Counted from the first letter of the stretch, positions 1 to 57,286 are shown. The stretch is DNA of 64,000 nucleotides from Promethearchaeota archaeon (GCA_048938025.1 JBHLMP010000005.1:44551-108550), one strand, 5' to 3'. Translations and numbers: made by a program. Notes: a model not told the origin generated them from the sequence alone.

Positions 1-871
1 GCGAAGTTGGTTGTACATCGTCAGTTTTTATCTGTGGGACTTCCATTATTGGCTTCTTTTCCTCTTTTTCTAAAAGTGGTGGAGTGGGTTGTATTTCTTC
101 AAATTTTACACCACAATTATTACAAAATTTTGACTCTAAGGGTATTTTCTGTCCACAGTGAGGACAAGTTTTCATTGGTTTCTCTTCTATTTTCTCTGGG
201 ATTGATGGAATCGGTTCTAGCTCTTCTGCTTTTTTTTGATAAACATCAGCTACAAAATAATGAAGTTCTTCATTACGTAAAGTTGAATCTATTTTTCCAT
301 TGGTTATCAAATTATTTAAAATCATTCGAAGATTTTCTCTGATATATTTTCTTTCATTATGTGTTATTACAGAATTTTCTAATCTTACACCCAAAGCAGA
401 AACTGTGAGCGCAGATCCTTTATTTTCTTTTAAATAATTATATACAATATTTTCGATGTTTTTCATAGAGATTTCAGATTTTTGTTCTTGGCTTATAGGT
501 GGTTTTGCACTTACAGCAGCAATAAATGTTACTATAGCACTCAAGACCCAAATTATTGTTTCCATACTATAATATAATCCCCCATAAGAATTAAAAAAAA
601 AGAGAAATGATACAATAAGAATCACACCATTTATAAAATATAACATACGTGCGTTCCAAGGTAAATCTCTTCCTGTATCAAAAATGTTTTTACTAGTATA
701 TGCATAATCTGTAGAATCCCAATAAATCGCAATAAATTGTATGATAATACAGACTATATATAATGTAATTACTGTGTTGATAATTGGGATATAATACAAC
801 AAATATTGTAAAAAAATTAAAATAAATAGTAGAAGAATGCCATAAAAAGCAAATTTAATTGATTCCTTAAT
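1..871 (-). CDS. Membrane protein (about 4 TM) with a cytoplasmic winged-helix-like segment and double zinc ribbon; 3' end runs off the window; probable ATT/ATA start
   Basis: Manual translation gives IKESIKFAFYGILLLFILIFLQYLL...NYLKENKGSALTVSAL...KTCPHCGQKIPLESKFCNNCGVKF..., open to position 1. It is absent from the ORF track because there is no stop in the window. In-frame TGA at 880-878; first canonical start is TTG at 802. Confidence 0.75.
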   Translation of the reverse strand, partial: MKESIKFAFYGILLLFILIFLQYLLYYIPIINTVITLYIVCIIIQFIAIYWDSTDYAYTSKNIFDTGRDLPWNARMLYFINGVILIVSFLFFFNSYGGLYYSMETIIWVLSAIVTFIAAVSAKPPISQEQKSEISMKNIENIVYNYLKENKGSALTVSALGVRLENSVITHNERKYIRENLRMILNNLITNGKIDSTLRNEELHYFVADVYQKKAEELEPIPSIPEKIEEKPMKTCPHCGQKIPLESKFCNNCGVKFEEIQPTPPLLEKEEKKPIMEVPQIKTDDVQPTS

Positions 872-1036
872 TATAAGTCAACTTTTATTATTTTGATTGT
901 AGTCTATTTATATAATTACATTTTATATATCGAACGTTTTAGTATATAAATTTTTATTAGGAGTAGTAAGTCATTGAGAAAAATATGTAAAAAAAAAATG
1001 ACTTTTATTTAAATCAATAGATCGTGATTGATTACT

Positions 1037-1501
1037 TTATTTGTCTGTAATTATATCGAATTCTATTAGATTTTCTAGTATTTTTTCTAAATAATTCTCG
1101 AAATCATCTATTTCTTCGTCGCTAAATTTGTTGTAGAATAATTTTCCCATTTCACGAGAAACATCTACATATTTATCTTGTAATAATCTATTCTTTTCTG
1201 TTAAAGCAATTAGAATTTCTCGCCTATCTTTTTTTGATGGAACTCGTTTAATAAATCCTGCCATTTCAAGATTATCCAGCATCGATGTTAAGGTAGATTT
1301 ACTATATTGCGTTTTCTCTACAAGTTCATGAATAGGTATATTATCCTTCTGCCAAAGAACAAACATAATTCTACCTTGAGCAGGATTAAATTCATCAAGT
1401 TTATGATCCTTTAGAATCCTAGCAAATATTCTCTGAGATAATTGATGAATTTTAGATATCAGAAAGCCGCCTTGTCGTTGTTGTTTCATTGTTTCCTTCA
1501 T
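1037..1501 (-). CDS. MarR family transcriptional regulator
   Basis: KSTLTSMLDNLEMAGFIKRVPSKKDRREILIALTEK is a MarR wing with DxR. Overlaps the upstream gene by 4 nt (ATGA). Confidence 0.9.
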   Translation of the reverse strand: MKETMKQQRQGGFLISKIHQLSQRIFARILKDHKLDEFNPAQGRIMFVLWQKDNIPIHELVEKTQYSKSTLTSMLDNLEMAGFIKRVPSKKDRREILIALTEKNRLLQDKYVDVSREMGKLFYNKFSDEEIDDFENYLEKILENLIEFDIITDK

Positions 1502-1959
1502 AATTCAAAATTAACTAGATTTAATTTGTAATAAAATCTGGCATGTTTTGGATTTAATATGAGTAATGTGTAATCTGGATCATCCACTCCCTCTTTATAA
1601 TATCTTGTCCACCAATCAAGCCATATGGTTCTTTTAAGTTCTTTATCATTAACGATTTCCACTAATCCTCTGAACATAACCCCTTTAAAATCTTCTGGAT
1701 CACAATAATAAACGTTAATTTTGGGGTTATTTTTTATATGAGCAACCTTGGACGACGATGTATTAGTTCCAATATAGATTGCAAATTTGTTTTCTTGCTC
1801 TTGAAAAAAAGTAGAAAATTCTGGAAATTGTTCCTTATTTCTAAGATTAAACATTGCCCTTGTTATAGGAAAACCATCAGAATCGATTGTTGTAAGATAT
1901 GCCGCTTTAGATGTTTCCATCAACTCTAAACTCTGTTTTTTTACTTCTTCAATATCCAT
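1498..1959 (-). CDS. Pyridoxamine 5'-phosphate oxidase-like / general stress protein 26 FMN-binding split barrel
   Basis: AYLTTIDSDGFPITRAM, TNTSSSKVAHIKNNPK, GVDDPDY. Confidence 0.85.
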   Translation of the reverse strand: MDIEEVKKQSLELMETSKAAYLTTIDSDGFPITRAMFNLRNKEQFPEFSTFFQEQENKFAIYIGTNTSSSKVAHIKNNPKINVYYCDPEDFKGVMFRGLVEIVNDKELKRTIWLDWWTRYYKEGVDDPDYTLLILNPKHARFYYKLNLVNFEL

Positions 1960-1986
1960 TTAAATTGCCTCCCAATTAAATAATTT

Positions 1987-2325
1987 TCATAGATTTTTTC
2001 GAATTTCTTCTAGATTTTGCTTGGCTGAAGGGCTTTTTTCAAAACACTTTTTTAAATTATCGCAGACGTACTCCTCGCAATAAGCACAATTTTCATAACC
2101 TTTCTCCCTACAGCAATTTCTTATATCGCATTCATTACACCAACTAAAAATTCTTCCTTCACTATTACAACCGTCACAATAGATATCCTCTGGTTTAAAA
2201 GACATCGTCTCACCAGACCATTCTTTAGCAATTCTTTTTATTTCTTCTTTATCTCCTTTTTGAGTAGCTATGTATGCGGGACATTCAGCACAATTAAGTC
2301 CGCAATATACTATTATTTTATCCAT
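1987..2325 (-). CDS. DUF3795 Cys-rich (Fe-S/metal) protein
   Basis: YCGLNCAECPAY...CDGC...CNECDIRNCCREKGYENCAYCEEYVC. Confidence 0.85.
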   Translation of the reverse strand: MDKIIVYCGLNCAECPAYIATQKGDKEEIKRIAKEWSGETMSFKPEDIYCDGCNSEGRIFSWCNECDIRNCCREKGYENCAYCEEYVCDNLKKCFEKSPSAKQNLEEIRKNL

Positions 2326-2357
2326 AATTCTATTCCTCTTTTTTTTTCTATTTTTTA

Positions 2358-2924
2358 TTATTTTGTTTTATAACTATTTCCTATATCATAGGCATTTGCG
2401 AGATATTCTCCAACTCTCAAATACGGACCATCAGGCATTAAGAATATAAATAAATCCATTTTTTTAAAATCTGGTTTATTTTCAGTTAGATATTTCTCTT
2501 CTGTGTAAACTTCAACAATTTCCCCTATAAATAATTCTGTTCTTTCAAGTTCTATTGTTCTAACCAATTTACACTCTATATTCAAAGGACAATCTTTTAT
2601 CATCGGTGCCCTTTTAAGATCTCCATAAAATACTTCAAATACTTCGGATTTATCAACTTCAGAACCTGAATGTAAACCAACATAGTCGGTTACCATAACC
2701 ATATCAGCAGAAGGTATATTAATGCTAAAAGCTTCATTTTCCTTAATACCCTTATTAGTATAATGTCTTTTTGACATTGCAACGCCAATCTGAGAAGGTG
2801 GAGAATTCAAAAGGTTAAACCAAACTATCGTGTTAAAATTTGGTTTACCATCAACATGAGCCCCTATTATACATACTGGCAGTGGTAAAAGGGGCAATTC
2901 CATTCCTGTTTTTATCTTATTGAT
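2358..2924 (-). CDS. Flavin reductase (flavoredoxin) family protein; possible ATC start at 2924 (ATG alternative at 2903)
   Basis: PLPVCIIGAHVDGKPNF, APMIKDCPLNIECKL, LFIGEIVEV. The upstream in-frame NKIKTG follows an AGGTG SD. Confidence 0.85.
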   Translation of the reverse strand: MNKIKTGMELPLLPLPVCIIGAHVDGKPNFNTIVWFNLLNSPPSQIGVAMSKRHYTNKGIKENEAFSINIPSADMVMVTDYVGLHSGSEVDKSEVFEVFYGDLKRAPMIKDCPLNIECKLVRTIELERTELFIGEIVEVYTEEKYLTENKPDFKKMDLFIFLMPDGPYLRVGEYLANAYDIGNSYKTK

Positions 2925-3082
2925 TTTTCACACCTTAATCTATTATTAACATTGACTCTTGTCTTTTCAAACAGTTCAGAAACCCTTTTTCTCCTTATTT
3001 CAGTATCATTATCTTTCTGAGTTCTTCCATTATTGAGAAACTCAAAATAAATATTTTCACAAGAATATCTAGTCTTATCCAT
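2912..3082 (-). CDS. Small hypothetical 56-aa ORF at the head of the operon
   Basis: ATG at 3082 gives MDKTRYSCENIIFEFLNNGRTQKDNDTEIRRKRVSELFEKTRVNVNNRLRCEKSIR*. It lies directly downstream of the operator and overlaps the next gene start. Confidence 0.35.
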   Translation of the reverse strand: MDKTRYSCENIYFEFLNNGRTQKDNDTEIRRKRVSELFEKTRVNVNNRLRCEKSIR

Positions 3083-3104
3083 TTTTTTGATCTATTTTAA
3101 TAAT

Positions 3105-3133
3105 GTTCTATATCGAACTGTTCTATATAGAAC
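3105..3133. promoter_or_regulatory. Tandem palindromic operator, probably for the MarR regulator of this operon
   Basis: GTTCTATATCGAAC (3105-3118) and the perfect palindrome GTTCTATATAGAAC (3120-3133), separated by 1 nt. Confidence 0.7.
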
Positions 3134-3208
3134 TATATTATACTTTCATATTTAAATATATCGATCTAAAAGGGAAAAACTCTTATATTCTACTTTGCTT
3201 TTTAGCAT

Positions 3209-4729
3209 TCATTTGAGAAAGTTTTCCCCATCCTTTAAAAGTAAAGTTTTATCAAAATTTTCCGCAAACCACTCTGGATTATCCGTGTGTACTGGAATAA
3301 TAACATCAGGATCAATTGTCTCAATTGCCCATCTAATGTCATTTTGTGATGCATGTCCAGAAGCGTGAAATCCTCTACTGAATTCAGGTTTTAATCGACC
3401 TTCTTCTTTAATAATCTCAAACCCGAATATTTTAAATCCAAAGTGCTCAAGCCATTTACCTAATCTTATAAAATCAAATTCAGATTCTTCCTCAAATGCT
3501 TCACTTGAAGAATAGATATAAGTACCATTTGTTGGTTTTATGTCCAATAAGTTTTTTAAATCATAAAGAGAGAAACATAATATATATCTATTAGGCTCTT
3601 TCGCAACATTTATTGGGTTTATGTAATTAATATCTTCCTTATTTTTAAGATATTTTTCCTCCCAATTCTGAGATTTTACTTTTAATGTATTAAAAATTAA
3701 GACATCTTTTAACCTTTTTATCCCATCAACCATCTCAAGAGCTTTTAGTAAGAAAGCATTCTTTGCGGTTATTACTAATTTTTTTTCTACTTTATTTGCT
3801 ATCTCTCGAAAAGTTTCTAATCGTTCGAAATTCCTAGCAGAAAAATCTGCAACGATGAGATCTTTTGAATTTTCAACAACATCTAGGCAATTATTAAAAA
3901 CTATATTTTCAGATTCATTAATATCTTCTCTCGTTGCTCTTGTTCCTTCAATAATTAAAATTGAAGCATCCTTTGCGCTTTTAATGAAATTCTTGCTTTT
4001 ATCACCCATTTTACCATGTAAGCGAAAATCACCAGTATAAGCAATAGAATTATCCCCACTGACTATGAACCCTGTTGCCCCATAAATAGAATGATCCACC
4101 TCAAAAGCTTTAATTTCGAATGTAGTAGAGAGTTCATCTAAATAATATAGCTCTCCTCTTTCAAAATCTTTTCCTTTTTTAATACAAGTAGATAAGAACT
4201 TTTCCATAGAATCCAAATAATTATAAGTACTGTAAAATGTTCTACATTTTCCTGGTTTACTACCTGATTTTAAAATTCTATCATCATCTGCTGGAACTCT
4301 TTCAAAAAAATAAGTAACTTCATTATTCAGACTAGCTTTTGAGCTATCTAATATACCCTTAAGTAATACTATAGTTGTAGGTGACGCAACAATGGGAATA
4401 TTAGGATCAAGCAAAGAAATATTGCCAAAATGATCCATATGTGCATGGCTGAGTAAAACCGCATCAATTTTTAGTGAAGGATATAATGATACATTAAGAT
4501 CAGAAGGAATGAGATCTTTTCGATAAATATTTAGCTTAGGAATAAGATCCAAATGGACAAGATCATGAATCCCGCGTGTAGGACGTTCTTTGAGAAATTC
4601 TTGAAAATATTCGCCATATTTCTTAAAATTCATACCGAAATCAAGAAATAAACCATTATCTCTTTCCTGCACATAAATCTTTGTCCCTCCAATTGTTTCT
4701 GACCCATCAAATACAGTTATTGATGTCAT
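3209..4729 (-). CDS. MBL-fold metallo-hydrolase, RNase J-like beta-CASP family
   Basis: TIGG, DFG, SHAHMDH, VDHS, YTGDFRLHG, IEGT, HASGH, IPVHT motifs. Confidence 0.85.
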   Translation of the reverse strand: MTSITVFDGSETIGGTKIYVQERDNGLFLDFGMNFKKYGEYFQEFLKERPTRGIHDLVHLDLIPKLNIYRKDLIPSDLNVSLYPSLKIDAVLLSHAHMDHFGNISLLDPNIPIVASPTTIVLLKGILDSSKASLNNEVTYFFERVPADDDRILKSGSKPGKCRTFYSTYNYLDSMEKFLSTCIKKGKDFERGELYYLDELSTTFEIKAFEVDHSIYGATGFIVSGDNSIAYTGDFRLHGKMGDKSKNFIKSAKDASILIIEGTRATREDINESENIVFNNCLDVVENSKDLIVADFSARNFERLETFREIANKVEKKLVITAKNAFLLKALEMVDGIKRLKDVLIFNTLKVKSQNWEEKYLKNKEDINYINPINVAKEPNRYILCFSLYDLKNLLDIKPTNGTYIYSSSEAFEEESEFDFIRLGKWLEHFGFKIFGFEIIKEEGRLKPEFSRGFHASGHASQNDIRWAIETIDPDVIIPVHTDNPEWFAENFDKTLLLKDGENFLK

Positions 4730-4830
4730 TTTTATAAAATCTTATAATCTTTAATTAAAAAATAAAATTAAAGAAATAAAAATTAAACCCTAAATTATTA
4801 TTAATTTACAAATCTTATGGATGGGTAATT

Positions 4831-5634
4831 TTACTCTAAACCTTTAATTTCTTTCGGAGTTCGTGGTGGAGAGCGAACAAACTTAACGGCAGGATATCCT
4901 ATTATGAAAGCCCCGATTCTTTTTCCATCAATATTAGCTAACTTTTTAATTTCAGAATTAGAATTCATTGCAATTTGAGACCAACCATTCCAGCACGTAC
5001 CTAGGCCAAGTGCTTGAGCAGCTAATCTTCCATATGTAATAATAATTCCTATATTATTTGCCTCTACTTCATGATCATTGGGAGAATCTATGAAAATTAC
5101 ATGGGGAGCATCAAAAAATATAGGACTGCGAAATGCTTTTCCAAGAATTCGAAGAATTCGTGCGTCTCTTTCCTTTGTTAAAGGATGATTAGATAATTCT
5201 TCTTGAATAGCATCAGAAAGCTTTTTTATTAGTTCACTATCTGATATAATCGAAAAGTTCTCTGTTCTTCTATTATCTCCAGTAGGAGCATTTTCCATTG
5301 CTTGAAAAACTTTCTTCAGTATTTCAAGTGGAACCTTTTTCTTTTTATAAAGCCGAACTGATCTATTCGCTCTAAGAAATTTATAAATAGTATCGTATGA
5401 AGCTATTGTTTCAGGTTTAGCAACACCTTCATATTCAAATGCTTCTCCCATACCTTCGTGCTGAACAGCATCCTCAGGACATCTAGCAATGCAATGAGCG
5501 CATAAATTACATAAGTTATAAGGATCACTAAAGATAACTTTTTCTTGCTCCTTATCCCATCTAAACATATAGCATGTAGTTAAGCAGATTCTACAATTAC
5601 TACATTTCTCATAATCTATTCCTAATATTGACAT
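4831..5634 (-). CDS. Nitroreductase family protein with N-terminal 4Fe-4S ferredoxin domain
   Basis: CxxCxxC and CxxCxxCxxxCP motifs; RSVRLY, APTG, GLGTCW. Confidence 0.9.
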   Translation of the reverse strand: MSILGIDYEKCSNCRICLTTCYMFRWDKEQEKVIFSDPYNLCNLCAHCIARCPEDAVQHEGMGEAFEYEGVAKPETIASYDTIYKFLRANRSVRLYKKKKVPLEILKKVFQAMENAPTGDNRRTENFSIISDSELIKKLSDAIQEELSNHPLTKERDARILRILGKAFRSPIFFDAPHVIFIDSPNDHEVEANNIGIIITYGRLAAQALGLGTCWNGWSQIAMNSNSEIKKLANIDGKRIGAFIIGYPAVKFVRSPPRTPKEIKGLE

Positions 5635-5778
5635 AATTATTGAATTTTAATTTTAAAATATAAAAATGAAAATCATACTTTAAATTAGTATTTTTACATC
5701 AAATAAATATTTTAATGAACCTGCTTATGACATGTGTTGTTGGTAATTATATTAGTCTAAAATTCTGAAAATTTCCTT

Positions 5779-5819
5779 TTTGATATATTCCTATTTGATA
5801 TATTCTTATTTGATATACT
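5779..5819. repeat. 15-bp tandem repeat (about 2.7 copies) in a divergent promoter region
   Basis: TTTGATATATTCCTA TTTGATATATTCTTA TTTGATATACT. Confidence 0.75.
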
Positions 5820-5923
5820 AAAATAAGCCTTATTGAATATTTATTAATTTTTTTAGCTAATTTTAATAAGATTAATAAATTAGCAAGAATAGTTAAATAC
5901 TTAATAGAGGAAAAGGTGTTTCC

Positions 5924-7195: not shown

Positions 7196-7219
7196 AACTT
7201 TCAAAACCTATAACACTTT

Positions 7220-7864: not shown

Positions 7865-7949
7865 AAATCATCATAAGAAAAAATGAAAAGTTCTTTATTA
7901 AGGGTTCTCTCTTATTACTGGGAAATTAGCAACTTTAATTTTGATTAAT

Positions 7950-27055: not shown

Positions 27056-27625
27056 TTATAATTCTGTAGATATCGATTTATGTTTATAATATAAATTTTC
27101 AATTAGTGAATTAAAAGCCTCATGGACTCCTTGCCCTGTTTTAGCGGAAGTTATGTAATACCCAAGAAAATTTCGTTTTTTTACAATCTCTTGAATCCCA
27201 GAGTGATCTAAACTATCCTCTTTGATCAAATCGACTTTATTAGCAAAAATCACTATAGGAATTTCACCACAGAATTGTATAGTATCTTCATGCCACTTTT
27301 TAATATTTTTGAAGCTCCGTTTACCCAAATCATTTTCTTCGAGACTATATACAATAATGGCGGCATTACTTGCTCTATAAAAAGAAGGACGTAAAAAATG
27401 AAAATCGTCTTGCCCAGCTATATCCCAAAATAATAATCTAATCTTATCTCCACTAATTTCTGCATCAAACTCAGAAAGTTGCGCACCAACAGTTTTAAGA
27501 TAATCCTTTTGAAAAGTTCCTTGAGTAAATTTCAGAATCAAGGTAGTTTTTCCTACGAAACCATCCCCTATAACCACAATCTTAAATTTCCGAAATTTTT
27601 CTGAATCTTTCTTTGAATCGCTAAT
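27056..27625 (-). CDS. Rab-like small GTPase (probable ATT start at 27625)
   Basis: FKIVVIGDGFVGKTT, TVG, WDIAGQ, LRPSFYRAS, NKVD, TSAKTG; no CAAX tail. Confidence 0.9.
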   Translation of the reverse strand: MSDSKKDSEKFRKFKIVVIGDGFVGKTTLILKFTQGTFQKDYLKTVGAQLSEFDAEISGDKIRLLFWDIAGQDDFHFLRPSFYRASNAAIIVYSLEENDLGKRSFKNIKKWHEDTIQFCGEIPIVIFANKVDLIKEDSLDHSGIQEIVKKRNFLGYYITSAKTGQGVHEAFNSLIENLYYKHKSISTEL

Positions 27626-27711
27626 TGGTATTCACATCACACCATTTTTCTTTTTAATAGAAGATTAGATTTTTCTAAATATAAAATTTTAGTCTTAATA
27701 ACCAATATAAT

Positions 27712-30673: not shown

Positions 30674-31360
30674 TTAAATTAAAAATCCTTTAAATATTGC
30701 TAAACTTCCTACATCAATTGCGATTAATGCCATAACTTCAATTACTGTTTCAATTGGGCGGAAAAACCCTGCAGTTACGTTGATAAAAAGAGCTATAACG
30801 ACTATAATTACTCCTATAGAAAACCATTGTATTCTCTTTTTCGTTTTTTTCTCTATTTTTCTGGTCATCATAATATATTTGTACACAACATAAAGGCTCA
30901 TTACTATCCTGAGAACATTAACGAAAATAAACCAACCACGAGGAGTTGTAGTATTGACAATATCCTGTTCATAACTATCCATATCTAATTTTGGAACCCA
31001 GATAAAATATCCCAAACTCATTACTAAAAATAGCACCATCATTGTTCCAAAGTATTGAAGACTCATTGCAACTTTCGCAAATTTTTCCAATATAAAAACT
31101 GTCATCATTAAAGAGACAATGGCAAAATTGAAAAAAATATGGGCAGTTACCATAAGAGGAATAATAATATCTGAGTTATTTGTAATCAAATGGTAAATTG
31201 TATAGGTTAAAAACCCTAAAGAAGAGGAAATAAAGAACAACATAAACCACCTATTTAACCAATTAGCGGGATTTAAAGTTAAGACCCGAAATCCTACAAC
31301 CAATGCCATTATTGTTGTTATTACAGCAGTAATCGCTTTAATTAAATTAACAATATCCAT
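30674..31360 (-). CDS. Standalone 7TM receptor-like protein (HisKA_7TM-like) without output domain
   Basis: Seven hydrophobic helices; N(W)LNRWF after TM1; basic KKTKKRI loop before TM6. Confidence 0.65.
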   Translation of the reverse strand: MDIVNLIKAITAVITTIMALVVGFRVLTLNPANWLNRWFMLFFISSSLGFLTYTIYHLITNNSDIIIPLMVTAHIFFNFAIVSLMMTVFILEKFAKVAMSLQYFGTMMVLFLVMSLGYFIWVPKLDMDSYEQDIVNTTTPRGWFIFVNVLRIVMSLYVVYKYIMMTRKIEKKTKKRIQWFSIGVIIVVIALFINVTAGFFRPIETVIEVMALIAIDVGSLAIFKGFLI

Positions 31361-35359: not shown

Positions 35360-35695
35360 TTACTTTTCGCTTAAGCTACCTAATACCTGCTCCATTTTTT
35401 TTCGATATAGTTCAAATGCTTCTCGACCTTTTACACTAAGTTTCAGCATTGTTTGAGGTTTTTTTCCTTTGAATTTCTTTTCAATATCTACATATCCAGC
35501 AGATTCGAGCTTACTTAAATGAGAAGATAGATTTCCATCAGTAAGACCCGTTTGATTTCTTAAGAAAACAAAATCAGCACTCTCAACTACATATAAATAT
35601 GACATTATCATTAACCTTGCCGGTTCATGAATAATTTTATCAATATCACTGAGAGGTCGGACGAATTCTTTTGATTCTGTTTTCTTTTTTACGAT
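35360..35695 (-). CDS. Winged-helix (HTH_34/ArsR-like) regulator; probable ATC start at 35695
   Basis: IDKIIHEPARLMIMSYL...ADFVFL...GLTDGNLSSHLSKLESAGYV..KKF.GKKPQT. Confidence 0.9.
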   Translation of the reverse strand: MVKKKTESKEFVRPLSDIDKIIHEPARLMIMSYLYVVESADFVFLRNQTGLTDGNLSSHLSKLESAGYVDIEKKFKGKKPQTMLKLSVKGREAFELYRKKMEQVLGSLSEK

Positions 35696-35698
35696 TTC

Positions 35699-36346
35699 TT
35701 ATGGCACCTCGTTTTTAGATAATGGATACTTTTTTAGAAAATGAATAAAAAAATATAATCCGATTACTATAATTATCCCTCCTATGAACCCAAAAATAAT
35801 AATAAAATCTAAAGGATTACCTACAATTGGATTTAGTAAATCGGTAAGAAAAAATCCTAATCCCCCTGAAAAAGCATAATAATATAATCTTGTAAAATCT
35901 AAGTAATAAGCTATGACACAAAACGGAATAGTAAATATTCCAAAACCTAACAATATTGTTATAAGGAAAGGTTGAATTTGGCTATAATCTATTATACCTA
36001 TAAGGCGCAACAGAAATAAAATCAAATTTACAATAAATACACCTAGTAAAAAAATTTTTAACTTTAATTGTTTTGACTTGCGTTTTGGTCCAAATTTAAC
36101 GTATCCAACGCGAGGAGTTGTTATATATTTTTTACCTAAAATAAATATTAGTAAAGTTATGATGTTCCATACTAAAGAGGAAATAAGGACAGCTAAGAAA
36201 CCAAGCGATTCAAAAACAAAATTAAATAATGGCCCCATTCCAACATTTAAAATTAGCATTCCAGTGAATAAATCCCATAAACCATCATTGAATACAGATC
36301 TATATGCTTTTTTCTCAATTTCCTTTAAATCAACTTTTTCGGTCAT
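35699..36346 (-). CDS. Membrane protein (about 6 TM) cotranscribed with the wHTH regulator
   Basis: DGLWDL, KKYITTPRVGYVKF, FLKKYP; GGTGA SD. Confidence 0.8.
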   Translation of the reverse strand: MTEKVDLKEIEKKAYRSVFNDGLWDLFTGMLILNVGMGPLFNFVFESLGFLAVLISSLVWNIITLLIFILGKKYITTPRVGYVKFGPKRKSKQLKLKIFLLGVFIVNLILFLLRLIGIIDYSQIQPFLITILLGFGIFTIPFCVIAYYLDFTRLYYYAFSGGLGFFLTDLLNPIVGNPLDFIIIFGFIGGIIIVIGLYFFIHFLKKYPLSKNEVP

Positions 36347-36485
36347 TTTTTTCACCTTAAATTCTTAAGATATGATTCTTAAAAATATCCTTTTCATATA
36401 TTTCTCCTCCCTTGATTTATTTTTTTTTATTTCTTAATTGATAAATAGAAAAAAAAATGAAAAATAAATAAAATCTTAGAAATAT

Positions 36486-40163: not shown

Positions 40164-40484
40164 TTTTTTAAACCTAAATTGAACTAATTGATATGTTTTA
40201 AATTTAATTAACTGAATTGAACTAAGAGTATAAAATATGAATTTGATTTTTCTTCTCTTATCCAGTAGGACTTTCTTAAGTCCTATTAAAATTATATTAA
40301 AGAAAGTATTTAAAGCTTTGTATCGCAAAGTGCTTTATGGATCCAAATCGCGAAAAGGTATCTCTAAATATTAATTATGTTAAAATTGTAAACTATTTTA
40401 AATATAATTACGAATCTAATGAATTAAAAAGAATGTGTGGAGTCCTTTCTTGAACAATAATACTTCAATATTCGGAAAAAAATA

Positions 40485-40772
40485 ATTTTTGCAAAAATAC
40501 CTGTTCTATTAGAAAAAGTGAAGAAAGAGGATTTAGATAAACAAATATTAAGAACAGCAATCTTAGCTGAATTAGATGCTATTAATCTCTATGAACAAAT
40601 GGCGAACCTTACAGATAATAAAAACTTGAAAATGGTACTTCTAGACGTAGCTAAAGAAGAAAAAGAACATGTAGGGGAATTTCAATATCTTTTATTAAAG
40701 CATGATCCTCAACAACAAGAAGAATTAGAAGAGGGCAAAGAGGAAGTCTAAGAATTAATAGGAGAAAAATAA
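40485..40772 (+). CDS. Ferritin-like / rubrerythrin-like (encapsulin-cargo Flp type) protein; ATT start and internal TAA at 40749-40751 (possible pseudogene)
   Basis: FAKIPVLLEKVKKEDLDKQILRTAILAELDAINLYEQ...EEKEHVGEF...EEGKEEV*ELIGEK*. Confidence 0.75.
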
Positions 40773-45387: not shown

Positions 45388-45400
45388 AATATATAGCCTC

Positions 45401-50269: not shown

Positions 50270-50297
50270 TATTTTTTTTATTATTATGGTGCTCTAT

Positions 50298-50609: not shown

Positions 50610-50682
50610 TAGTCAAAAACACTTCTTTCAGTTATTAGCCTTTTTAACAAATTTCGATTTTGTTATGAAAAATTAAATAAGA

Positions 50683-51243
50683 TTAAGTTGGGTTTTTGTT
50701 TTTTTCGAATAAGCTTGGTAAAAAATTGACAAATTCACTCATCTCTTCTTTACTATGCTTGCGTAGCGCTTCGATAAATTGTTTTGGAACTCTGGCAGGT
50801 AATCGAAATGTTGTGCGTAATCTTGTTCCATTTTCAATTGATTCATATTCGTGTAAAGCCCAACTTGTTGGATTGTCATTGTGATTAAGAATACTCATTA
50901 CTAATGCATGGTCATATTCAATTGGTATAGGTGAAGTACTCGGATCTTCCCATCGGATTCTTAAAGTGGTGGGGAGCCCCCCAATATTTTCATTAATCCT
51001 TTGTATCGCCCCTATATGACCTTTTTTAGGGGAAACTTCCCATTGAAAAGATTGATGGTCTTTCGGATGCCATAATTTATAGCGCTTGTTTGTATCTATA
51101 TTATCCCACCACCAATCTATCATTTCTGGTGTAACTCCATTCAATATGTGATCGACTACTAAATCCATCGTTTGACCTTTTGACATTTTATGTATTTGTT
51201 CCATAATCTTATCTGATTCGTTACTCGGTGGTTCTTTTGACAT
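50683..51243 (-). CDS. PhlG/DAPG-hydrolase-like (Bet v1 fold) protein
   Basis: GVTPEMIDWWW...RYKLWHPKDH...HSKEEM...FLP. Confidence 0.75.
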   Translation of the reverse strand: MSKEPPSNESDKIMEQIHKMSKGQTMDLVVDHILNGVTPEMIDWWWDNIDTNKRYKLWHPKDHQSFQWEVSPKKGHIGAIQRINENIGGLPTTLRIRWEDPSTSPIPIEYDHALVMSILNHNDNPTSWALHEYESIENGTRLRTTFRLPARVPKQFIEALRKHSKEEMSEFVNFLPSLFEKNKNPT

Positions 51244-51425
51244 ATTTTCAATTACTAATTCAATAAAAATAAATTAATAATAATAACTAATGATTTGTTG
51301 TTTTTATTTGATACTTTATTAATTACTTCAGAAATTTAAACAATACTTCGATTGACTAATTATAAGTTAAACATAAAAATGCTTTAATTCATTAAAAAGA
51401 GCTAAATTTATCCACACTTTTCTGC

Positions 51426-51782
51426 TTATAATTTAATTGATTTTTTATGAGCCCACTCCATAAGAGGTATCATAGCATCTTTTACTTCTATGCCATCTTG
51501 TGTCAATGTATATTCGACTCTTGGTGGAATTTCTGCGAAAGTTTCTCTTTTTATAAGCTCTGCTTTTTCTAATTCTTTTAATCTCATTGATAAGGTTCTT
51601 GGACTTATTCCTTCTAAACTTTTCATAAGCTCATTAAATCTAATTCTTTTATTATTACTAATTGTACCTATAATTACCAATGCCCATTTTTTACTTAAAA
51701 CTTCAATAACTCCTTCAATCGGGCAAAAACATATCCCATTTTCCTCTGTATTGTTACATTTAGAATTAGTATTCTTATTGAT
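51426..51782 (-). CDS. HxlR family regulator with N-terminal CFCP; probable ATC start at 51782
   Basis: CFCPIEGVIEVLSKKWALVII...RFNEL...ISPRTLSMRLKELE...PPRVEYTLT. Confidence 0.9.
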   Translation of the reverse strand: MNKNTNSKCNNTEENGICFCPIEGVIEVLSKKWALVIIGTISNNKRIRFNELMKSLEGISPRTLSMRLKELEKAELIKRETFAEIPPRVEYTLTQDGIEVKDAMIPLMEWAHKKSIKL

Positions 51783-51800
51783 AGTAAATCACCTTATTTT

Positions 51801-51858
51801 TACTTACTATGCTGCTATACACTTACTAATTTAAATACTTTACTATTTATACTTAATA
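51801..51858. promoter_or_regulatory. Repeated TACTT(T)ACTA boxes in the divergent HxlR/peptide promoter
   Basis: TACTTACTA, CACTTACTA, TACTTTACTA, TACTTAATA. Confidence 0.45.
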
Positions 51859-51932
51859 TATAATATATAGCAATTAATTAAAAATTTATTTATTGGAATT
51901 AAAATAAAAAAAATTTTGGAGGAAATAAAAAA

Positions 51933-52064
51933 ATGACTGATCAACTTAGGCCAGTAAAAGATTTGGAACCTATAAAGGAAGATAAAGCTTGTGTTTGCAA
52001 TTGTATAAACTCAAATGATAGCGATTGTGAAGAAGAAACAACATCAAAAGAAGATTGTTGTTAG
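51933..52064 (+). CDS. 43-aa acidic Cys-rich peptide (metallothionein-like)
   Basis: GGAGG SD; MTDQLRPVKDLEPIKEDKACVCNCINSNDSDCEEETTSKEDCC; tandem stops TAG TAA. Confidence 0.7.
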   Translation: MTDQLRPVKDLEPIKEDKACVCNCINSNDSDCEEETTSKEDCC

Positions 52065-52209
52065 TAAAAGTGAATAGAATTTGCATAGATGCAACCTTCA
52101 ATCTAGTGGACCTTTATTCCTGTCTAAAAGATATTCGTAAGAGACTTTGATAGAAATATTATTTCTGAATGGATTTTTAAATCCAGAATTCCTTTCTCTG
52201 AGCTAAATA

Positions 52210-52378
52210 AAAAATCTTTTATTTAATTAAGTGCTTTTCTTCTTTAATAAAATTAGGCAAAAAGGTAAGAAGTATGGTACTTTTAATAATTAGTGGAATT
52301 TCTGCAATAATAATAGGAATAGGAATTATAGGACTTTGGAAAAAGTTGCTTCTTTATAGTTATTTTGCAAAGGAATAA
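52210..52378 (+). pseudogene. Truncated duplicate of the 49901 gene and its promoter (repeat copy 2, 52210-52340)
   Basis: MVLLIISGISAIIIGIGIIGLWKKLLLYSYFAKE* versus IVLLIISGIYAIIIGIGIIGLWTMLLL. Confidence 0.7.
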
Positions 52379-52402
52379 AAAAAATAGAATCTAGTTAATT
52401 TA

Positions 52403-53821
52403 TTAGATTCCTAAATAATTAAGAGCTCTCTGCTTTACTTCTTCCATTTTTTTAATTTTTATATTAATTTCGTCTTTCTCTGTTATCATATTCAAGGTTA
52501 ATGTGAGTTTTCCACTTACTCCCACTGCTCCTATAATTAAAGGTATTGAACGGCCGGCAGAGGGTGCAAAATACATTTTATCTATAATTAAATCTCCAAA
52601 ATTTTCTTGATAATTCAATCGACCCAAGTTTGTAGTTGTCATGCCCGGAAGCGCACTCTTAAACTTATTAGAGATTTTAACCGCAACGTTCTTCTTGTTT
52701 TTGGTGAGATTCTCTAGCTTTTTAAGTCGTGGATCTTTATTAGTTTTCAGCTCATGATATTGTCCTAAGGTAATAAATCCCTCAATTAAAGAGGGTTCGA
52801 GGTTTTCCAAATTTGCTGCTGCGGTAAATACCTTGCGGCTATTGATCTTTTTTACTGCAACTTTATGGAACATTTGGGCATTTTCCCAGAAGCCTTTTTT
52901 ATGATTGTATTTAAATTTCATAATTATACTTCCCACAAACAAGCCAAAAGAACCCTCATTACCTGTATTGATTCTTGTTCTCAAATCATAGGGAATTGCT
53001 ATTTTTTTCTGATTATTCTTAAATTGTCCAAAAACTTCTTGATAGGCAATATAAAATGCAGTTGTTAAGGCAGAATTGATGGTAATTTCATGCTCTTTAC
53101 ATAATTGATTAAATTCCTTAGTCTTTTCTCTTGTTAATTCTAAAAGCACCACATCATATATATAATGCTCCCAAAATGTATCACGTAATTTCTTAAATTC
53201 CTCTCCTTCGATATAAAAAGAATCCTTCTTCCACCTTGAATTAATTGAGTTAAATATTTTTGATTTCAACTTATTCTTAATTCTTCCTTTGGACTTAGTA
53301 TCAGATAAAGCGCTCAAGGATAATTGAGGGGGCGCAATTGTTTTTATTTCCATATTTGGATTTGCGATAAATGTTAAAATGTCTCGGAGCAAGTTCGCAA
53401 GGGCAGTTCCATCGCAGATTGTATGAAGGCAAAATACGATTATATCAGAAATATCATTTGATTGTAATAAGATGAATCTAATCAGTGGGCCTGTAAAAAT
53501 GTCGAAGGGTATTTTATGTTCATTTTGAATTACTTTAATAAAATGATAATCAGAAATTCGCTTTACTACTTTCAGAGGGATCTCTGGCACATTATCTTCA
53601 TAAAACCAAGCAATATGGTCGTTATCAAAAACTACTCTAGCAGATAATAATGGATGCATGACTTGGGCTTTGGATAGCGCATTTTTGAGTTGAGTTTCAG
53701 AGATCGTTCCTATGATTCGCACAATTACTGACACATTAGCATTAGGTGTACGTAAAAACTTTAGTTCGTTATTTAATACTTTACGAAGTTTCCCATTTTC
53801 TTGATCTGGTCTAATACTCAT
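52403..53821 (-). CDS. Condensation-domain / PapA5-like CoA-dependent acyltransferase
   Basis: HPLL, LHTICDGT (HxxxDG), DLR, TTNLG. Confidence 0.85.
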   Translation of the reverse strand: MSIRPDQENGKLRKVLNNELKFLRTPNANVSVIVRIIGTISETQLKNALSKAQVMHPLLSARVVFDNDHIAWFYEDNVPEIPLKVVKRISDYHFIKVIQNEHKIPFDIFTGPLIRFILLQSNDISDIIVFCLHTICDGTALANLLRDILTFIANPNMEIKTIAPPQLSLSALSDTKSKGRIKNKLKSKIFNSINSRWKKDSFYIEGEEFKKLRDTFWEHYIYDVVLLELTREKTKEFNQLCKEHEITINSALTTAFYIAYQEVFGQFKNNQKKIAIPYDLRTRINTGNEGSFGLFVGSIIMKFKYNHKKGFWENAQMFHKVAVKKINSRKVFTAAANLENLEPSLIEGFITLGQYHELKTNKDPRLKKLENLTKNKKNVAVKISNKFKSALPGMTTTNLGRLNYQENFGDLIIDKMYFAPSAGRSIPLIIGAVGVSGKLTLTLNMITEKDEINIKIKKMEEVKQRALNYLGI

Positions 53822-53861
53822 TTCTTTTCACCTTTTTAAATTAGATTTTAATTAAATTTAA

Positions 53862-53901
53862 AAGTAAGTAAGACTTACTTATAGGTAAGTAACACTTACT
53901 T
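53862..53901. promoter_or_regulatory. Tandem TetR operator
   Basis: AAGTAAGT-AAG-ACTTACTT (53862-53880) and AGGTAAGT-AAC-ACTTACTT (53883-53901). Confidence 0.8.
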
Positions 53902-53959
53902 ATAAATGTTATTCATCATTTTAAAACCAAAAGAACGTTAAAAATAGAGTGTTTTTATC

Positions 53960-54559
53960 ATGGGAAAGAAACAACACAAAAAACGTAAAACTCGCGAGGA
54001 AAATATAAACCTCATTAAAGAAACTACGTTAAAAATGATTGAAGAAATAGGATATCCAAATACTTCTACTAATGAAATAGCGAAACGTTCAGGGGTGAAC
54101 ATTGGATTACTATATAGATATTTTCCTGATGGTAAACCGAGTATTCTTAGAGAAATTGGGATGTCTTTTGTTGAAAAAATGAATATAATTCCTGATATTA
54201 TCATAAAAGATCCTCTTCAGTTCCTAAATGGATTATTGATGAAATTGATAGAAACTCATAGGGAAAGAGGAACCATATTAAAAGCAATGACAATCGCATT
54301 TCTATCAAACGATAAAATACTGGAAGATGCAGTATCTCTACTAACTATTGATAGAGATTATGTGAATTTTTACAAGAAAATTTTTCTTCAATTAGGGTAT
54401 TCAGATCAAAACGATTTGGAAGAGAAATGTTTAATAATTCTTCATGTTATTGACTCTATGATCCATCGACAAGTAATTGTGAGAGAAATTGTTCAATCGG
54501 ATGAATTACTTGCCAAGCATTTAGCAACTTTAATTTTAAAATATTTAGATTTAGATTGA
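53960..54559 (+). CDS. TetR/AcrR family regulator
   Basis: GYPNTSTNEIAKRSGVNIGLLYRYFPDGK. Confidence 0.92.
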   Translation: MGKKQHKKRKTREENINLIKETTLKMIEEIGYPNTSTNEIAKRSGVNIGLLYRYFPDGKPSILREIGMSFVEKMNIIPDIIIKDPLQFLNGLLMKLIETHRERGTILKAMTIAFLSNDKILEDAVSLLTIDRDYVNFYKKIFLQLGYSDQNDLEEKCLIILHVIDSMIHRQVIVREIVQSDELLAKHLATLILKYLDLD

Positions 54560-54618
54560 GTTTTATTGGTTTAGGTTATTTCTTTATTTGGTAGAGTAGC
54601 CAAGTGAAAGCAGCATGG

Positions 54619-54636
54619 AGGTGGTAATTACCACCT
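54619..54636. repeat. Perfect 18-bp palindrome between convergent genes
   Basis: AGGTGGTAATTACCACCT. Confidence 0.7.
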
Positions 54637-54729
54637 AATCTAAAGATCTACAAATTTCATTTATCATTTAGCTATCCTTAGATCATTGTTTTTGCCCAAA
54701 ATTAATAAGTAAAATAGTAAGAAACAGAT

Positions 54730-55164
54730 TCAAATCCCTGTTAAATAAAGAATAATGAATTGGATTAATTCGATAATACCTTTACCTTTATCACTTAATT
54801 CGTACAAAACTTTGGGGGGTCGATCATCTTGGACAGTTCTTGTTATTAAATTAAGACCCTCAAGTTGTTTAAGACGATCTGATAATGAACGTGAAGAGAT
54901 ACCTTCCATATGACGCATCATTTCATTAAAATTCATTCTTGAATGGATCTCTAATTCATATAAAATTCGCACATTCCATTTTTTTCTAATAAATTCAAAA
55001 GTTTTTAAAAAGAATTTCATTTCTTCAATATTTCGTGCTTCGTCATGTTCGATATTCTGAAAATGTGAATCCATTAGCTCCTTAACTAATTTTCTTGAAT
55101 CTTTAAGTAACTGATCTAAAGGTCTTAATTTTTCATCTATGAGTTTATCCAAGATCTTTTTCAC
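54730..55164 (-). CDS. HxlR family regulator
   Basis: KKWNVRILYEL, FNEM, ISSRSLSDRLKQLE, RPPKVLYELSDKG. Confidence 0.9.
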   Translation of the reverse strand: MKKILDKLIDEKLRPLDQLLKDSRKLVKELMDSHFQNIEHDEARNIEEMKFFLKTFEFIRKKWNVRILYELEIHSRMNFNEMMRHMEGISSRSLSDRLKQLEGLNLITRTVQDDRPPKVLYELSDKGKGIIELIQFIILYLTGI

Positions 55165-55178
55165 AAATTTAATTTTAA

Positions 55179-55198
55179 TACTTTAAAACTGTAAAGTA
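55179..55198. promoter_or_regulatory. Inverted repeat, putative HxlR operator
   Basis: TACTTTA-N6-TAAAGTA just upstream of the HxlR start. Confidence 0.55.
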
Positions 55199-55321
55199 AG
55201 TGATTTTCTATTTACTGACTTCTTTATATATTAGTTTCCTTATATTTTTTATTGTAAAAATAAAAACTAAAAGTATTTGCGAGTAAATAAAGAAGAAGAT
55301 TAAATATGTTAAATTTCTAAG

Positions 55322-56410
55322 GTGGTTAAAATAGATAAATTAATAATTGTTGGATCGAAAAACATAAAAGATAAAGTTAAATATTGCTTAGAAACGATTG
55401 ATTTTAAACCGAGTTCTAATGAATTCGTTTTAAAACCAAATATTGTATATAAACATAAGTCAGGATCGGGTCATATTACTGATATTAGAATAGTTGAGTC
55501 TTTGATAGAAATTTTAAATGAAAATTACAATGCAAAGAAGATCATTATTGCCGAGGGTCCAACTCTCCTTCTAGAAAACCCTATGGAATTATTTGAATAT
55601 GTGGGATATACTAAATTAGTAAAAAAATTTCATAATGTTTCTTTAGTGGATATTTATCAAACAAGCTATAAGAAAAATAATAATCATTTTATGGTGCCTG
55701 AAATTTTAGAAGGGCGTTCGTTAATAAATCTTCCAGTATTAAAAGGTCATGCGCAAGTGGGCCTAACTTGTGCGATTAAGAATCTGAAAGGATTATTGCA
55801 AAGATCAGATAAGAAAAAATTTCATCAAGAGGGATTACATGAACATTTATCTACTCTAGTGAATTTAAAACCAGAAATTACTTTAGTAGATGCAATTACT
55901 TGTCAAGAATGCGAAGGTGATTTTTTGTCAAAAAAATACAAATTTAATTTATTAATATGCAGTAAAAACCCTCTTATAATTGATGATTTTTGTTCAAAAC
56001 TAGTAGGTTTTAATATTGATGAAATTCCTTACCTAAAAATGCTTATAGAAAAAGAATCACTTAATTATAAAATAATTGGAGATTATGAGTTATTAGCAAC
56101 TTGGAATGCACCTAAATATGAATTAAGTTATGGTAAAATTGATATTTATCATAATGATTGTTGCAGTTATTGTGTTGGAGCGTTGCTTCATTATTTAACT
56201 CCAAAAAGGTACAAAAAACATAAAAAGTTAGGTTTAATTTTACACATAATAAGTTTGAGCTTGAAAAAAGAGAGGATTTCTTTTATTATGGGAAAAAATA
56301 TGAATATAAATGAAGATATTGAAGGAAAAGTTTTTCTCTTTGGAAACTGTGCTAAAAACCTTTATCCTGGAGAATTTATTGCTGGTTGTCCACCTAACTT
56401 TAAGGATTAG
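55322..56410 (+). CDS. DUF362 domain Fe-S protein
   Basis: LKPN, IAEG, INLPVLKGH...TCAIKNLKG, CCSYC, GNC...GCPP. Confidence 0.85.
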   Translation: MVKIDKLIIVGSKNIKDKVKYCLETIDFKPSSNEFVLKPNIVYKHKSGSGHITDIRIVESLIEILNENYNAKKIIIAEGPTLLLENPMELFEYVGYTKLVKKFHNVSLVDIYQTSYKKNNNHFMVPEILEGRSLINLPVLKGHAQVGLTCAIKNLKGLLQRSDKKKFHQEGLHEHLSTLVNLKPEITLVDAITCQECEGDFLSKKYKFNLLICSKNPLIIDDFCSKLVGFNIDEIPYLKMLIEKESLNYKIIGDYELLATWNAPKYELSYGKIDIYHNDCCSYCVGALLHYLTPKRYKKHKKLGLILHIISLSLKKERISFIMGKNMNINEDIEGKVFLFGNCAKNLYPGEFIAGCPPNFKD

Positions 56411-56509
56411 ATTTCCTAAAAAACTCATTATTTGAAAAAATTATTTTTTAATGATACTAACAAAAAATTAGAATAATAAGAAATATGAATAGAGATAGAG
56501 GGATTAAAA

Positions 56510-57286
56510 ATAGAGCAGAAAAAAGGTTTTAACTTACTGAAGGATAAAGTTCCCGAATTTAGGAGTCCTTTAAAAGCAGTAATTATTATTATTATCGGGC
56601 TGTTTATTTTTCTAGATATTATGATCTTTTTCTGGTGGTTTGATAGACTGGTAGGGTACGGATTTTTCATCAGTCAGTCAATTAATGCACTTATTGCTTC
56701 GGTTTTTATATACTGTTTTACAACAATGGCAGATAAATACAAAAAGAAATACGGAGAATTAGCATACCGATATTTCTTCTTCCATATTGTTATATTAATG
56801 CTTATAACTGGAAATGCCGGCATTTTCCATGTTCTTATAATAGAGGGACCTTCTCTGCTTCCTCTATGGCTTGCTATAGTACTTGGAGTTCTTTTTATTT
56901 TTATGCGCTTTTTATTCGAATGGCATCTTCGCAATTCTGGTTTTAATGAGGTTGGACATGGTCTTGGAATATACATGCTATTTCCAGAAGAAGGAACTCA
57001 AATTAATTCCGAGATCTACTCATTTATTCGACATCCTATGTATGCTGGAGATCTATGCCTTGCTTTTGGTTTTGCTTTTTTAAAAAACAATCTCTTCGCT
57101 TTTCTAATTGCCTTGATTGCTTTCATCCCATTTATAGTAGCAATGAAGTGTGAAGATAAGGAGTTAATAAAGCGATTTGGAGAAAAACATAAGCAGTATA
57201 TTAAAGAGACTGGTGCTATCATCCCGCATTTGAAAAAAATAGGAAAATTTCTAATATTTCTCTTTTCTAAGAAAAAAATCCAATAG
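56510..57286 (+). CDS. Isoprenylcysteine carboxyl methyltransferase/PEMT-like membrane protein; probable ATA start at 56510
   Basis: IYSFIRHPMYAG, EDKELIKRFGE..KQY. The frame stays open 37 codons upstream of ATG 56621 and includes an extra TM helix. Confidence 0.8.
   Translation: MEQKKGFNLLKDKVPEFRSPLKAVIIIIIGLFIFLDIMIFFWWFDRLVGYGFFISQSINALIASVFIYCFTTMADKYKKKYGELAYRYFFFHIVILMLITGNAGIFHVLIIEGPSLLPLWLAIVLGVLFIFMRFLFEWHLRNSGFNEVGHGLGIYMLFPEEGTQINSEIYSFIRHPMYAGDLCLAFGFAFLKNNLFAFLIALIAFIPFIVAMKCEDKELIKRFGEKHKQYIKETGAIIPHLKKIGKFLIFLFSKKKIQ

Follow-up and report, generated by a model that had tools for sequence, protein, structure and literature searches.

Shine-Dalgarno-led initiation at ATT, ATC and ATA codons as a probable habit of a promethearchaeal genus

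A stretch of 64,000 nucleotides from a Promethearchaeota archaeon (GCA_048938025.1, JBHLMP010000005.1:44551-108550; here the window, or G000:C52:44551-108550 in our own numbering of genomes and contigs) contains seven genes that probably begin at ATT, ATC or ATA (jointly AUH), instead of at one of the canonical start codons ATG, GTG and TTG. The genome is a metagenome bin of 3.5 Mb in 88 contigs, and the window has a G+C content of about 30%. Comparison with related sequences leads us to propose, with considerable confidence, that the seven codons would be genuine starts reflecting a habit of the entire genus, a Lokiarchaeial lineage of the Promethearchaeota, led by Shine-Dalgarno (SD) motifs and read by the initiator methionyl-tRNA (Met-tRNAi). 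A preliminary description of this DNA had listed the seven codons, and all of them are present where it placed them. Its upstream motifs and spacers were recovered as quoted at six sites, but the ATT at 40485, for which a weak SD had been suggested, is not preceded by any. An in-frame stop lies 1 to 8 codons before each AUH codon, and the first ATG, GTG or TTG follows 7 to 37 codons after it. The two canonical sites adduced for comparison, at 31360 and 53821, are both real, but the spacer of the second is AAAGAA, that is, 6 nt and not 5. The proposal of a lineage habit was borne out by the orthologues, by purifying selection, by genome-wide SD statistics and by the occurrence of AUH starts in essential genes. 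As for its frequency, the suggested figure of about 1 gene in 10 fits the window, where the seven genes compare with 69 non-overlapping open reading frames (ORFs) of at least 60 codons in a longest-ORF tiling, but the genome-wide value is nearer 2-6%, so that most likely roughly one gene in twenty begins at ATT, ATC or ATA behind a ribosome-binding site.

The first body of evidence comes from the orthologues. For each gene 30 relatives were searched (18 of the same genus and 12 of the same order) and the codon homologous to the proposed start was read, which at all seven sites proved to be either AUH or a canonical start, with an ACG in one relative (G002) at site 56510. Five sites, at 871, 27625, 35695, 51782 and 56510, are strong cases, in which no canonical start gives an intact protein, and at the two others, 2924 and 40485, a nearby canonical codon, 7 and 11 codons downstream, is a possible alternative start. 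The genes, codons and motifs are the following.

2-871, minus strand: membrane protein gene with a C-terminal zinc-ribbon-like CxxC...CxxC, read from ATT 871
869-871, minus strand: predicted ATT start codon; homologous codon ATT in 4/4 homologues with a readable N-terminus
878-883, minus strand: SD-like AGTTGA, 6 nt before the ATT (AGTTGA-cttata-ATT)
2358-2924, minus strand: flavin reductase-like gene (PF01613), read from ATC 2924; alternative ATG at 2903
2922-2924, minus strand: ATC candidate start, probable but not certain; ATC also in G012
2930-2935, minus strand: SD AGGTGT, 5 nt before the ATC (AGGTGT-gaaaa-ATC) and 26 nt before the ATG
27056-27625, minus strand: small Ras/Roc-like GTPase gene (PF00071), read from ATT 27625
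27623-27625, minus strand: predicted ATT start codon; ATT also in the closest orthologue, G015 (76%)
27632-27637, minus strand: SD-like ATGTGA, its GTGA 6 nt before the ATT (ATGTGA-atacca-ATT); a 4-mer match to the consensus only
35360-35695, minus strand: winged-helix regulator gene (PF13601, HTH_34), read from ATC 35695
35693-35695, minus strand: predicted ATC start codon, 3 nt after the TAA of the upstream gene
35705-35710, minus strand: SD GAGGTG, 9 nt before the ATC (GAGGTG-ccataagaa-ATC); kept in G008 and G005
40482-40751, plus strand: small EncFtn-like/rubrerythrin-like gene (PF22277), read from ATA 40482 or ATT 40485
40485-40487, plus strand: ATT candidate start, no SD; the ATA at 40482-40484 is equally possible
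51426-51782, minus strand: HxlR-family regulator gene (PF01638), read from ATC 51782
51780-51782, minus strand: predicted ATC start codon; ATT in G002 (68%), and GGTGA-tttact-ATG, of identical geometry, in G020
51789-51794, minus strand: SD AGGTGA, 6 nt before the ATC (AGGTGA-tttact-ATC)
56498-56503, plus strand: SD-like GAGGGA, 6 nt before the ATA (GAGGGA-ttaaaa-ATA); AGAGGGATT is kept in G014 and G011
56510-57286, plus strand: PEMT/ICMT-like membrane methyltransferase gene (PF04191), read from ATA 56510
56510-56512, plus strand: predicted ATA start codon; ATA at the same codon in G014 (87%) and G011 (80%, directly after TAA)

The membrane protein gene at 871 runs past the left edge of the window as part of a 370-codon open frame in the contig and has no Pfam match. 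Its first canonical codon, a TTG at codon 26, falls within the first hydrophobic helix, and the sequences sharing the ATT are the window's own genome (G000), G012 (79%), G006 (33%, with the ATT directly after a TAA) and G013 (31%), the last two with a GGTGA at the identical 6-nt spacing. The Ras profile of the GTPase at 27625 sets in at residue 17, ahead of the first canonical codon, a GTG at codon 19 that falls inside strand beta1. ATG occupies the homologous place in 18 other loci compared, some of which (such as L013) read ATG-agc-gat-tca where the window has ATT-agc-gat-tca, matching codon for codon. The family of small Ras/Roc/Arf-like GTPases is very large, with 53 matches in this genome and 54-81 in members of the genus; 3 of its 21 clear members in G000 have no canonical start before the P-loop strand, and one of these looks like a fragment. 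For the HxlR regulator at 51782 the profile begins at residue 30 and the first canonical codon (TTG) is codon 37. The opposite strand of this gene carries a 127-codon open frame, longer than the gene itself (51451-51831, plus strand), and our longest-ORF rule picked this shadow frame over the HxlR gene, as a gene caller could likewise do. In the methyltransferase at 56510 no ATG occurs before codon 45, which falls within a membrane helix, and the Pfam domain, lying far downstream of the start region, is uninformative about the start; a more distant relative, G008 (33%), has an ATG within about 2 codons of the ATA position.

The winged-helix regulator at 35695, whose profile starts at residue 28 and whose first ATG is codon 30, shows ATC in three of 11 close orthologues (G000, G008 and G005), ATG in six and TTG in two. 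Its upstream neighbour (35699-36355, minus strand) stops in the same frame as the ATC (TAA GAA ATC; window 35696-35701), and both genes are probably translationally coupled, to judge from this arrangement. Such a layout invites the idea that AUH codons are used only by ribosomes that reinitiate after terminating upstream, under laxer start rules. The 3 nt between the TAA and the ATC speak for it, but at the other six sites the closest same-strand ORF upstream is about 100-620 nt away, or the gene heads a divergent unit; because 35695 is the only site that abuts an upstream stop, reinitiation is not the general cause, and as an explanation of the whole set we find it barely credible.

Less clear-cut is the site at 2924, where ATC is shared by G012. 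In three other genomes (G005, G016 and G003) an ATA stands there after a (G)GTGA, with no canonical codon upstream, and nine other orthologues have GTG or ATG at the position or 1-3 codons upstream. The site is ambiguous because G000 and G012 have an ATG downstream, at the position where the other orthologues keep a conserved Trp. Before the ATC the frame reads GTG-TGA-AAA-ATC (window 2925-2933, minus strand), and several orthologues read GTG-AAA-AAA-ATA, so that an ancestral GTG start was apparently separated from the gene by a stop which doubles as part of the SD; the run of A is one base longer in G005 and G003 than in G001, which puts the GTG out of frame. At 40485 there is no SD before the ATA or the ATT, and a GTG at 40518 is the alternative. 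Judged by the profile of the EncFtn-like family, the domain would begin at about residue 12 of the open frame and so before that GTG (codon 20), which is gta in G018. An ATG is aligned to the ATA at 40482 in the same genome (97%) and another to the ATT at 40485 in G029 (60%).

Since the upstream frame is closed within a few codons, the start must fall in the short interval between the stop and the extension, where AUH is the only type of codon shared. Read-through of TGA, the stop upstream of five of the seven genes, was considered and rejected, because TAA closes the frame at the other sites and in orthologues; the TGA belongs to the GGTGA-type SD itself.

Are the extensions translated? Differences were counted over the codons that separate the AUH from the first canonical start, and solely against close orthologues that bear AUH themselves, in seven pairwise comparisons for sites 871, 27625, 35695, 51782 and 56510 (L081 being poorly aligned, with 3 codons). 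Pooled, they gave 41.5 synonymous differences over 97 synonymous sites and 54.5 non-synonymous differences over 389 non-synonymous sites, that is, a ratio of non-synonymous to synonymous differences per site (pN/pS) of 0.33, similar to the rest of each gene; the synonymous share was 0.43 against 0.20 expected (binomial p = 1e-7). Judged by this pattern, the extensions are under purifying selection in the AUH-bearing species, which indirectly shows their translation. Moreover, the Pfam domains start upstream of the first canonical codon at 27625, 35695, 40485 and 51782. This test does discriminate, because the canonical starts do fit in ten other ORFs of the window that have an open upstream frame and a Pfam domain near the N-terminus.

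The expectation that standard annotation would truncate such proteins was confirmed for three genes by exact look-up of the NCBI proteins on the contig, which is 108,550 bases long: the winged-helix protein is deposited with 83 aa from the ATG, against 111 aa from ATC 35695, the methyltransferase with 221 aa from the ATG, against 258 aa from ATA 56510, and the flavin reductase with 179 aa. The downstream canonical starts are thus those of the public gene calls, and one may suppose that translation does begin at the first ATG, GTG or TTG, the proteins being shorter and the conserved upstream part an untranslated leader. Some sites accommodate this supposition well: at 2924 the ATG 7 codons downstream replaces the conserved Trp and leaves the Pfam domain whole, at 40485 a GTG follows after 11 codons, and at 35695 a start at the ATG removes just 2-3 positions of the HTH_34 profile. 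Yet the extensions evolve as coding sequence, and downstream starts would delete 7 positions of the HxlR profile and the membrane helix of the PEMT-like protein and, elsewhere in the genome, the zinc knuckle of the initiation factor aIF1 and at least 50 residues of the ribosomal proteins eL21 and eS26. In addition, the position of the first canonical codon of aIF1 wanders among species from 15 to 106 codons, and the SD stands at a start-like spacing from the AUH, not from the downstream canonical codon. All this makes shorter proteins a very improbable explanation, and initiation at the AUH codons the better reading.

A different objection is that the AUH codons are decayed starts of dying genes, or mistakes of sequencing or assembly. 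The genome is a metagenome bin with 5% estimated contamination, and in such an AT-rich sequence a single change turns ATG into ATA, ATT or ATC. Against this, species whose genomes were assembled independently carry the same AUH codons, and the frames are intact, with extensions whose pN/pS is like that of the rest of the gene and AUH codons kept across species, features unlike those of pseudogenes; the genes under purifying selection include essential ones. Logan contigs from four runs of four studies cover the stretch, and among the differences listed none falls at 27623-27625, 35693-35695 or 40485-40487, which argues weakly in the same direction. Decay or error is hence scarcely tenable as an account of the AUH starts.

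Beyond the window, genes were defined genome-wide by a crude rule as the longest non-overlapping stop-to-stop ORFs, 2788 in number. The k-mers over-represented ahead of unambiguous ATG starts correspond to pieces of GGAGGTGAT, with the A of GGTGA mostly 5-7 nt before the ATG, and the SD 5-mer occurs at 178 of 1025 unambiguous ATG starts. Among first canonical starts at large just 304 of 3255 have the 5-mer at a spacer of 4-9 nt, a low share that agrees with two reviews (PMC7531240, PMC12993045) in which SDs are described as not prevalent in Lokiarchaea. In-frame codons that precede the first canonical start by 5 codons or more were then compared according to the SD before them. At a spacer of 5-7 nt the 5-mer precedes 59 of 2050 AUH codons against 49 of 10742 other codons, which served as reference (odds ratio, OR, 6.5; p = 3e-20), and at a spacer of exactly 6 nt the contrast rises to 29/2050 versus 15/10742 (OR 10.3); at 12-13 nt there is no excess (14/2050, OR 0.98). 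The histogram of AUH spacers peaks at 6-7 nt, the same as for ATG. At spacers of 4-9 nt CTG and ACG taken together are also enriched (11/86, OR 11), and AAG and AGG are not (6/450, OR 1.0). The relaxed third-position initiation put forward in the preliminary description is therefore right as to the use of AUH but too narrow, given that CTG and ACG are enriched too. A candidate ACG start lies about 28 kb to the left of the window, in a membrane protein gene (G000:C52:16166-16618, plus strand) that reads GAGGTG-ttttaa-ACG and whose homologue in the same genus has ATG.

Three rough estimates put AUH-started genes at 2-6% of the genome. The SD excess corresponds to about 50 SD-led AUH starts in 2788 ORFs, a floor of about 1.8%, and a mixture model of coding potential, applied to the 10 codons that precede the first canonical start, puts the share of genes at 6.2% (95% interval 4.6-8.6%). 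The third is a homology census, for which four other genomes supplied pieces of 400-800 kb. Of 1331 G000 genes, 75 had protein homology extending 8 residues or more beyond the first canonical start on its upstream side; with the aligned region of the partner required to lie inside a canonical ORF, the figure was 41 of 1089. For 24 of these 41 the start of the partner maps inside the open frame, and the exactly homologous codon is AUH in 12 (ATT 5, ATA 4, ATC 3), against 15.6% expected (p = 9e-5); an SD precedes 7 of the 12, compared with the low share of canonical first starts given above. One census candidate, an aldehyde:ferredoxin oxidoreductase (AOR) at G000:C52:38640, was discarded, as it fits its ATG instead.

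When the SD counts at AUH and at other codons and the census were set out for the genomes compared, the following figures were obtained.

G000, the window's genome (20-kb chunks): SD-led AUH 47/1445 vs 38/7542; census 41/1089 (3.8%)
G006, same genus: SD-led AUH 5/241 vs 4/1637, p = 0.003; census 11/233 (4.7%)
G024, genus g5: SD-led AUH 4/349 vs 9/2603, p = 0.058; census 6/367 (1.6%)
G026, genus g2: SD-led AUH 4/374 vs 19/2546, p = 0.53; census 2/266 (0.8%)
G027, another family: SD-led AUH 3/161 vs 29/2855, p = 0.24; census 1/102 (1.0%)

These numbers are an indication that the AUH habit is strongest in this genus. In the same genome, core genes of translation and other conserved genes appear to be AUH-started, their Pfam profiles beginning far upstream of any canonical codon.

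G000:C5:48786-49103, plus strand: eL21 (ATC), no canonical start before the Pfam domain
G000:C14:37182-37469, plus strand: eS26 (ATA), no canonical start before the Pfam domain
G000:C48:12889-13197, minus strand: eL34 (ATT), no canonical start before the Pfam domain
G000:C3:6757-7131, plus strand: L7Ae (ATT), no canonical start before the Pfam domain
G000:C20:19990-20502, plus strand: homologue of E2-like ubiquitin-conjugating enzymes, apparently AUH-started, GGTGA-N6-ATC
G000:C33:27743-28480, minus strand: ThiF/E1-like gene, apparently AUH-started, GGTGA-N6-ATT

Within the genus eL21 has AUH in 15 of 17 members (ATA 7, ATC 4, ATT 4), the other two having TTG and CTG; outside it (n = 12) there are seven ATG, one of them a codon upstream of the aligned position, four TTG and one ATT with a nearby TTG. 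The proteasome alpha subunit of G000 has an ordinary start, AGGTGG-N6-ATG.

A further case is that of aIF1, of which G000 has a single SUI1 gene (PF01253, 65 bits), outside the window (G000:C24:2575-2904, minus strand). No canonical codon precedes its zinc knuckle, the first GTG being codon 44, inside the SUI1 fold, and an ATT stands 9 nt after AGGTTGTGA. The codon is ATT in all 16 readable genomes of the genus, mostly two codons after a TAA, and elsewhere in the order it is ATA in g5 (2/2), TTG in g2 (2/2) and g9, and ATG in g8, g4 and g3. A wider set of 80 loci, from species representatives titled Promethearchaeota or Promethearchaeia, some with other Asgard labels, had ATT in 75, ATC in three and an unreadable codon in two, so that none of the 78 readable species departs from ATT or ATC. 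In each of these 78 loci an in-frame stop precedes the codon by 1-3 codons, and the first canonical one follows it after 15-106 codons.

How would such codons be read? We propose that the SD of the mRNA pairs with the 3' end of the 16S rRNA and thereby sets the AUU, AUC or AUA in the P site, where the ordinary initiator Met-tRNA, with anticodon CAU, would be accepted despite the mismatch at the third position; CUG and ACG seem to be used too, and AAG and AGG do not. The SD surplus at AUH starts fits such a near-cognate tolerance by Met-tRNAi on SD-positioned mRNAs. Inspection of the initiator tRNA, as the preliminary description had advised, found an ordinary molecule, with anticodon CAU, A1:U72 and the GGG:CCC pairs of the anticodon stem. 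Its gene (L324; G000:C55:10639-10790, plus strand) was recognised after removal of two introns, of 25 nt after position 37 and of 31 nt in the T-loop, owing to which ARAGORN and Rfam had missed it.

Still, AUH codons might be read by other means: a dedicated initiator-like tRNA starting proteins with Ile, a modified anticodon of tRNAi, or editing of the mRNA to AUG. Sequence data do not identify the first amino acid, and the tRNA set is incompletely readable, many intron-bearing tRNAs having been missed by ARAGORN and Rfam; ARAGORN finds just 15 intron-less tRNAs in the whole genome, an incomplete and unreliable set. But the CAU anticodon arm is normal in the only initiator-type tRNA detected, the enrichment of CTG and ACG is better fitted by a general near-cognate tolerance, and AUU starts of bacteria use the normal initiator, so a special reader appears very improbable next to the ordinary Met-tRNAi.

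The permissive setting would be held by aIF1 itself which, being started at AUU, would close a negative feedback like that of bacterial infC; by analogy this is possible, and we put it forward tentatively. In other archaea, according to one study, aIF1 destabilises complexes formed on non-AUG codons (PMC6237735); this fidelity role, together with the strictly conserved AUU of aIF1, suggests a feedback of the infC type. The SD enrichment at AUH codons loosely follows the aIF1 start, being strong in two genomes with ATT, borderline in one with ATA and absent in one with TTG. Against the feedback it must be said that the argument is drawn from analogy and from five genomes. More speculative is the idea of a Lokiarchaeial clade with a generally relaxed initiation, in which AUH, CUG and ACG would be regular starts of main ORFs, ribosomal protein genes included, under the control of an AUU-started aIF1 loop.

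Several points weigh against taking the seven codons, and the habit they suggest, at face value. Canonical codons lie close at hand at 2924 and 40485 (7 and 11 codons downstream), the domain of the flavin reductase-like protein, from residue 14, is compatible with the ATG at codon 9, and the SD is absent at 40485 and matches weakly at 871 and 27625. No match to a 16S rRNA gene was found in the genome, so the anti-SD is assumed and the motif was taken from the enriched k-mers. The longest-ORF rule took at least one shadow ORF as a gene, and at least one of the census hits it produced, the AOR mentioned before, was false. Four control samples gave results too noisy to validate the coding-potential estimator, with intervals of 0.1-11.7% in G026, -0.5 to 17.5% in G006 and 7-34% in G027. 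The comparison genomes are few and were sampled unequally, and no RNA run is listed as containing the stretch.

SD-led AUH initiation as such is known from bacteria. NCBI translation table 11 lists ATT, ATC and ATA as starts, SD-led AUH starts are found in infC and pcnB of Escherichia coli, and bacterial infC, which encodes IF3, is autoregulated through its own AUU start. In eukaryotes, near-cognate initiation occurs with a stringency controlled by eIF1. For Staphylococcus aureus, a study reports AUH starts with extended SDs in infC (AUA), cvfC1 (AUU), ccpN (AUA) and citZ (AUA), in which AUA and AUU depend on the extended SD and give about 10-30% of the output of AUG (PMC13009471). The starts described here share with the bacterial ones the normal SD spacing, the conservation in relatives, the neglect by gene finders and an over-representation of SDs (7/12 versus 9% of canonical starts), and differ from them in occurring in an archaeon with the eukaryote-type factors aIF1, aIF1A and aIF2, and in about 2-6% of genes, ribosomal proteins included, instead of a handful. 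As in infC, the gene for a factor that rejects non-AUG starts, aIF1, itself begins at AUU or AUC (78/78 readable species). However, aIF1/SUI1 is not homologous to IF3, its feedback is our inference, and its fidelity role is taken from other archaea (PMC6237735). The hierarchy resembles that of eukaryotic near-cognate codons, with AUH, CUG and ACG, besides GUG and UUG, apparently used and AAG and AGG not, and the fidelity factor is a homologue of eIF1; unlike in eukaryotes, the start is positioned by SD pairing and not by scanning, and the frequency among main ORFs is far higher. In the full-text literature outside subscription journals and supplements we found no paper on frequent AUH initiation in Asgard archaea. 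A single published remark concerns one gene of an Asgard metagenome-assembled genome whose deposited protein was N-terminally too short and which had an ATT upstream, plausibly spaced from a ribosome-binding site; there it is called rare and given without a census, whereas the habit reported here is frequent, genus-wide and extends to core translation genes. What is new is thus the frequency, the involvement of core translation genes and the eukaryote-type machinery.

For those who work with these much-studied genomes, the practical consequence is that gene finders restricted to ATG, GTG and TTG truncate or miss a few per cent of the proteins. Work on Asgard proteins has already been led astray by N-termini that were missing, and domain inventories of 'eukaryotic signature proteins', small GTPases and E1/E2-like enzymes among them, suffer from the problem; those of the Asgard ubiquitin system may contain truncated models. 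In a wider sense, a lineage combining frequent near-cognate starts with an AUU-started aIF1 offers a direct handle on how the stringency set by eIF1/aIF1 in eukaryotes and archaea is tuned, and is relevant to the question of how start selection guided by the SD existed side by side with that of the eukaryotic type around the time when eukaryotes arose. If the aIF1 loop is true, it would be a convergent copy of the infC circuit, built on eukaryote-type machinery in the archaeal group nearest to eukaryotes.

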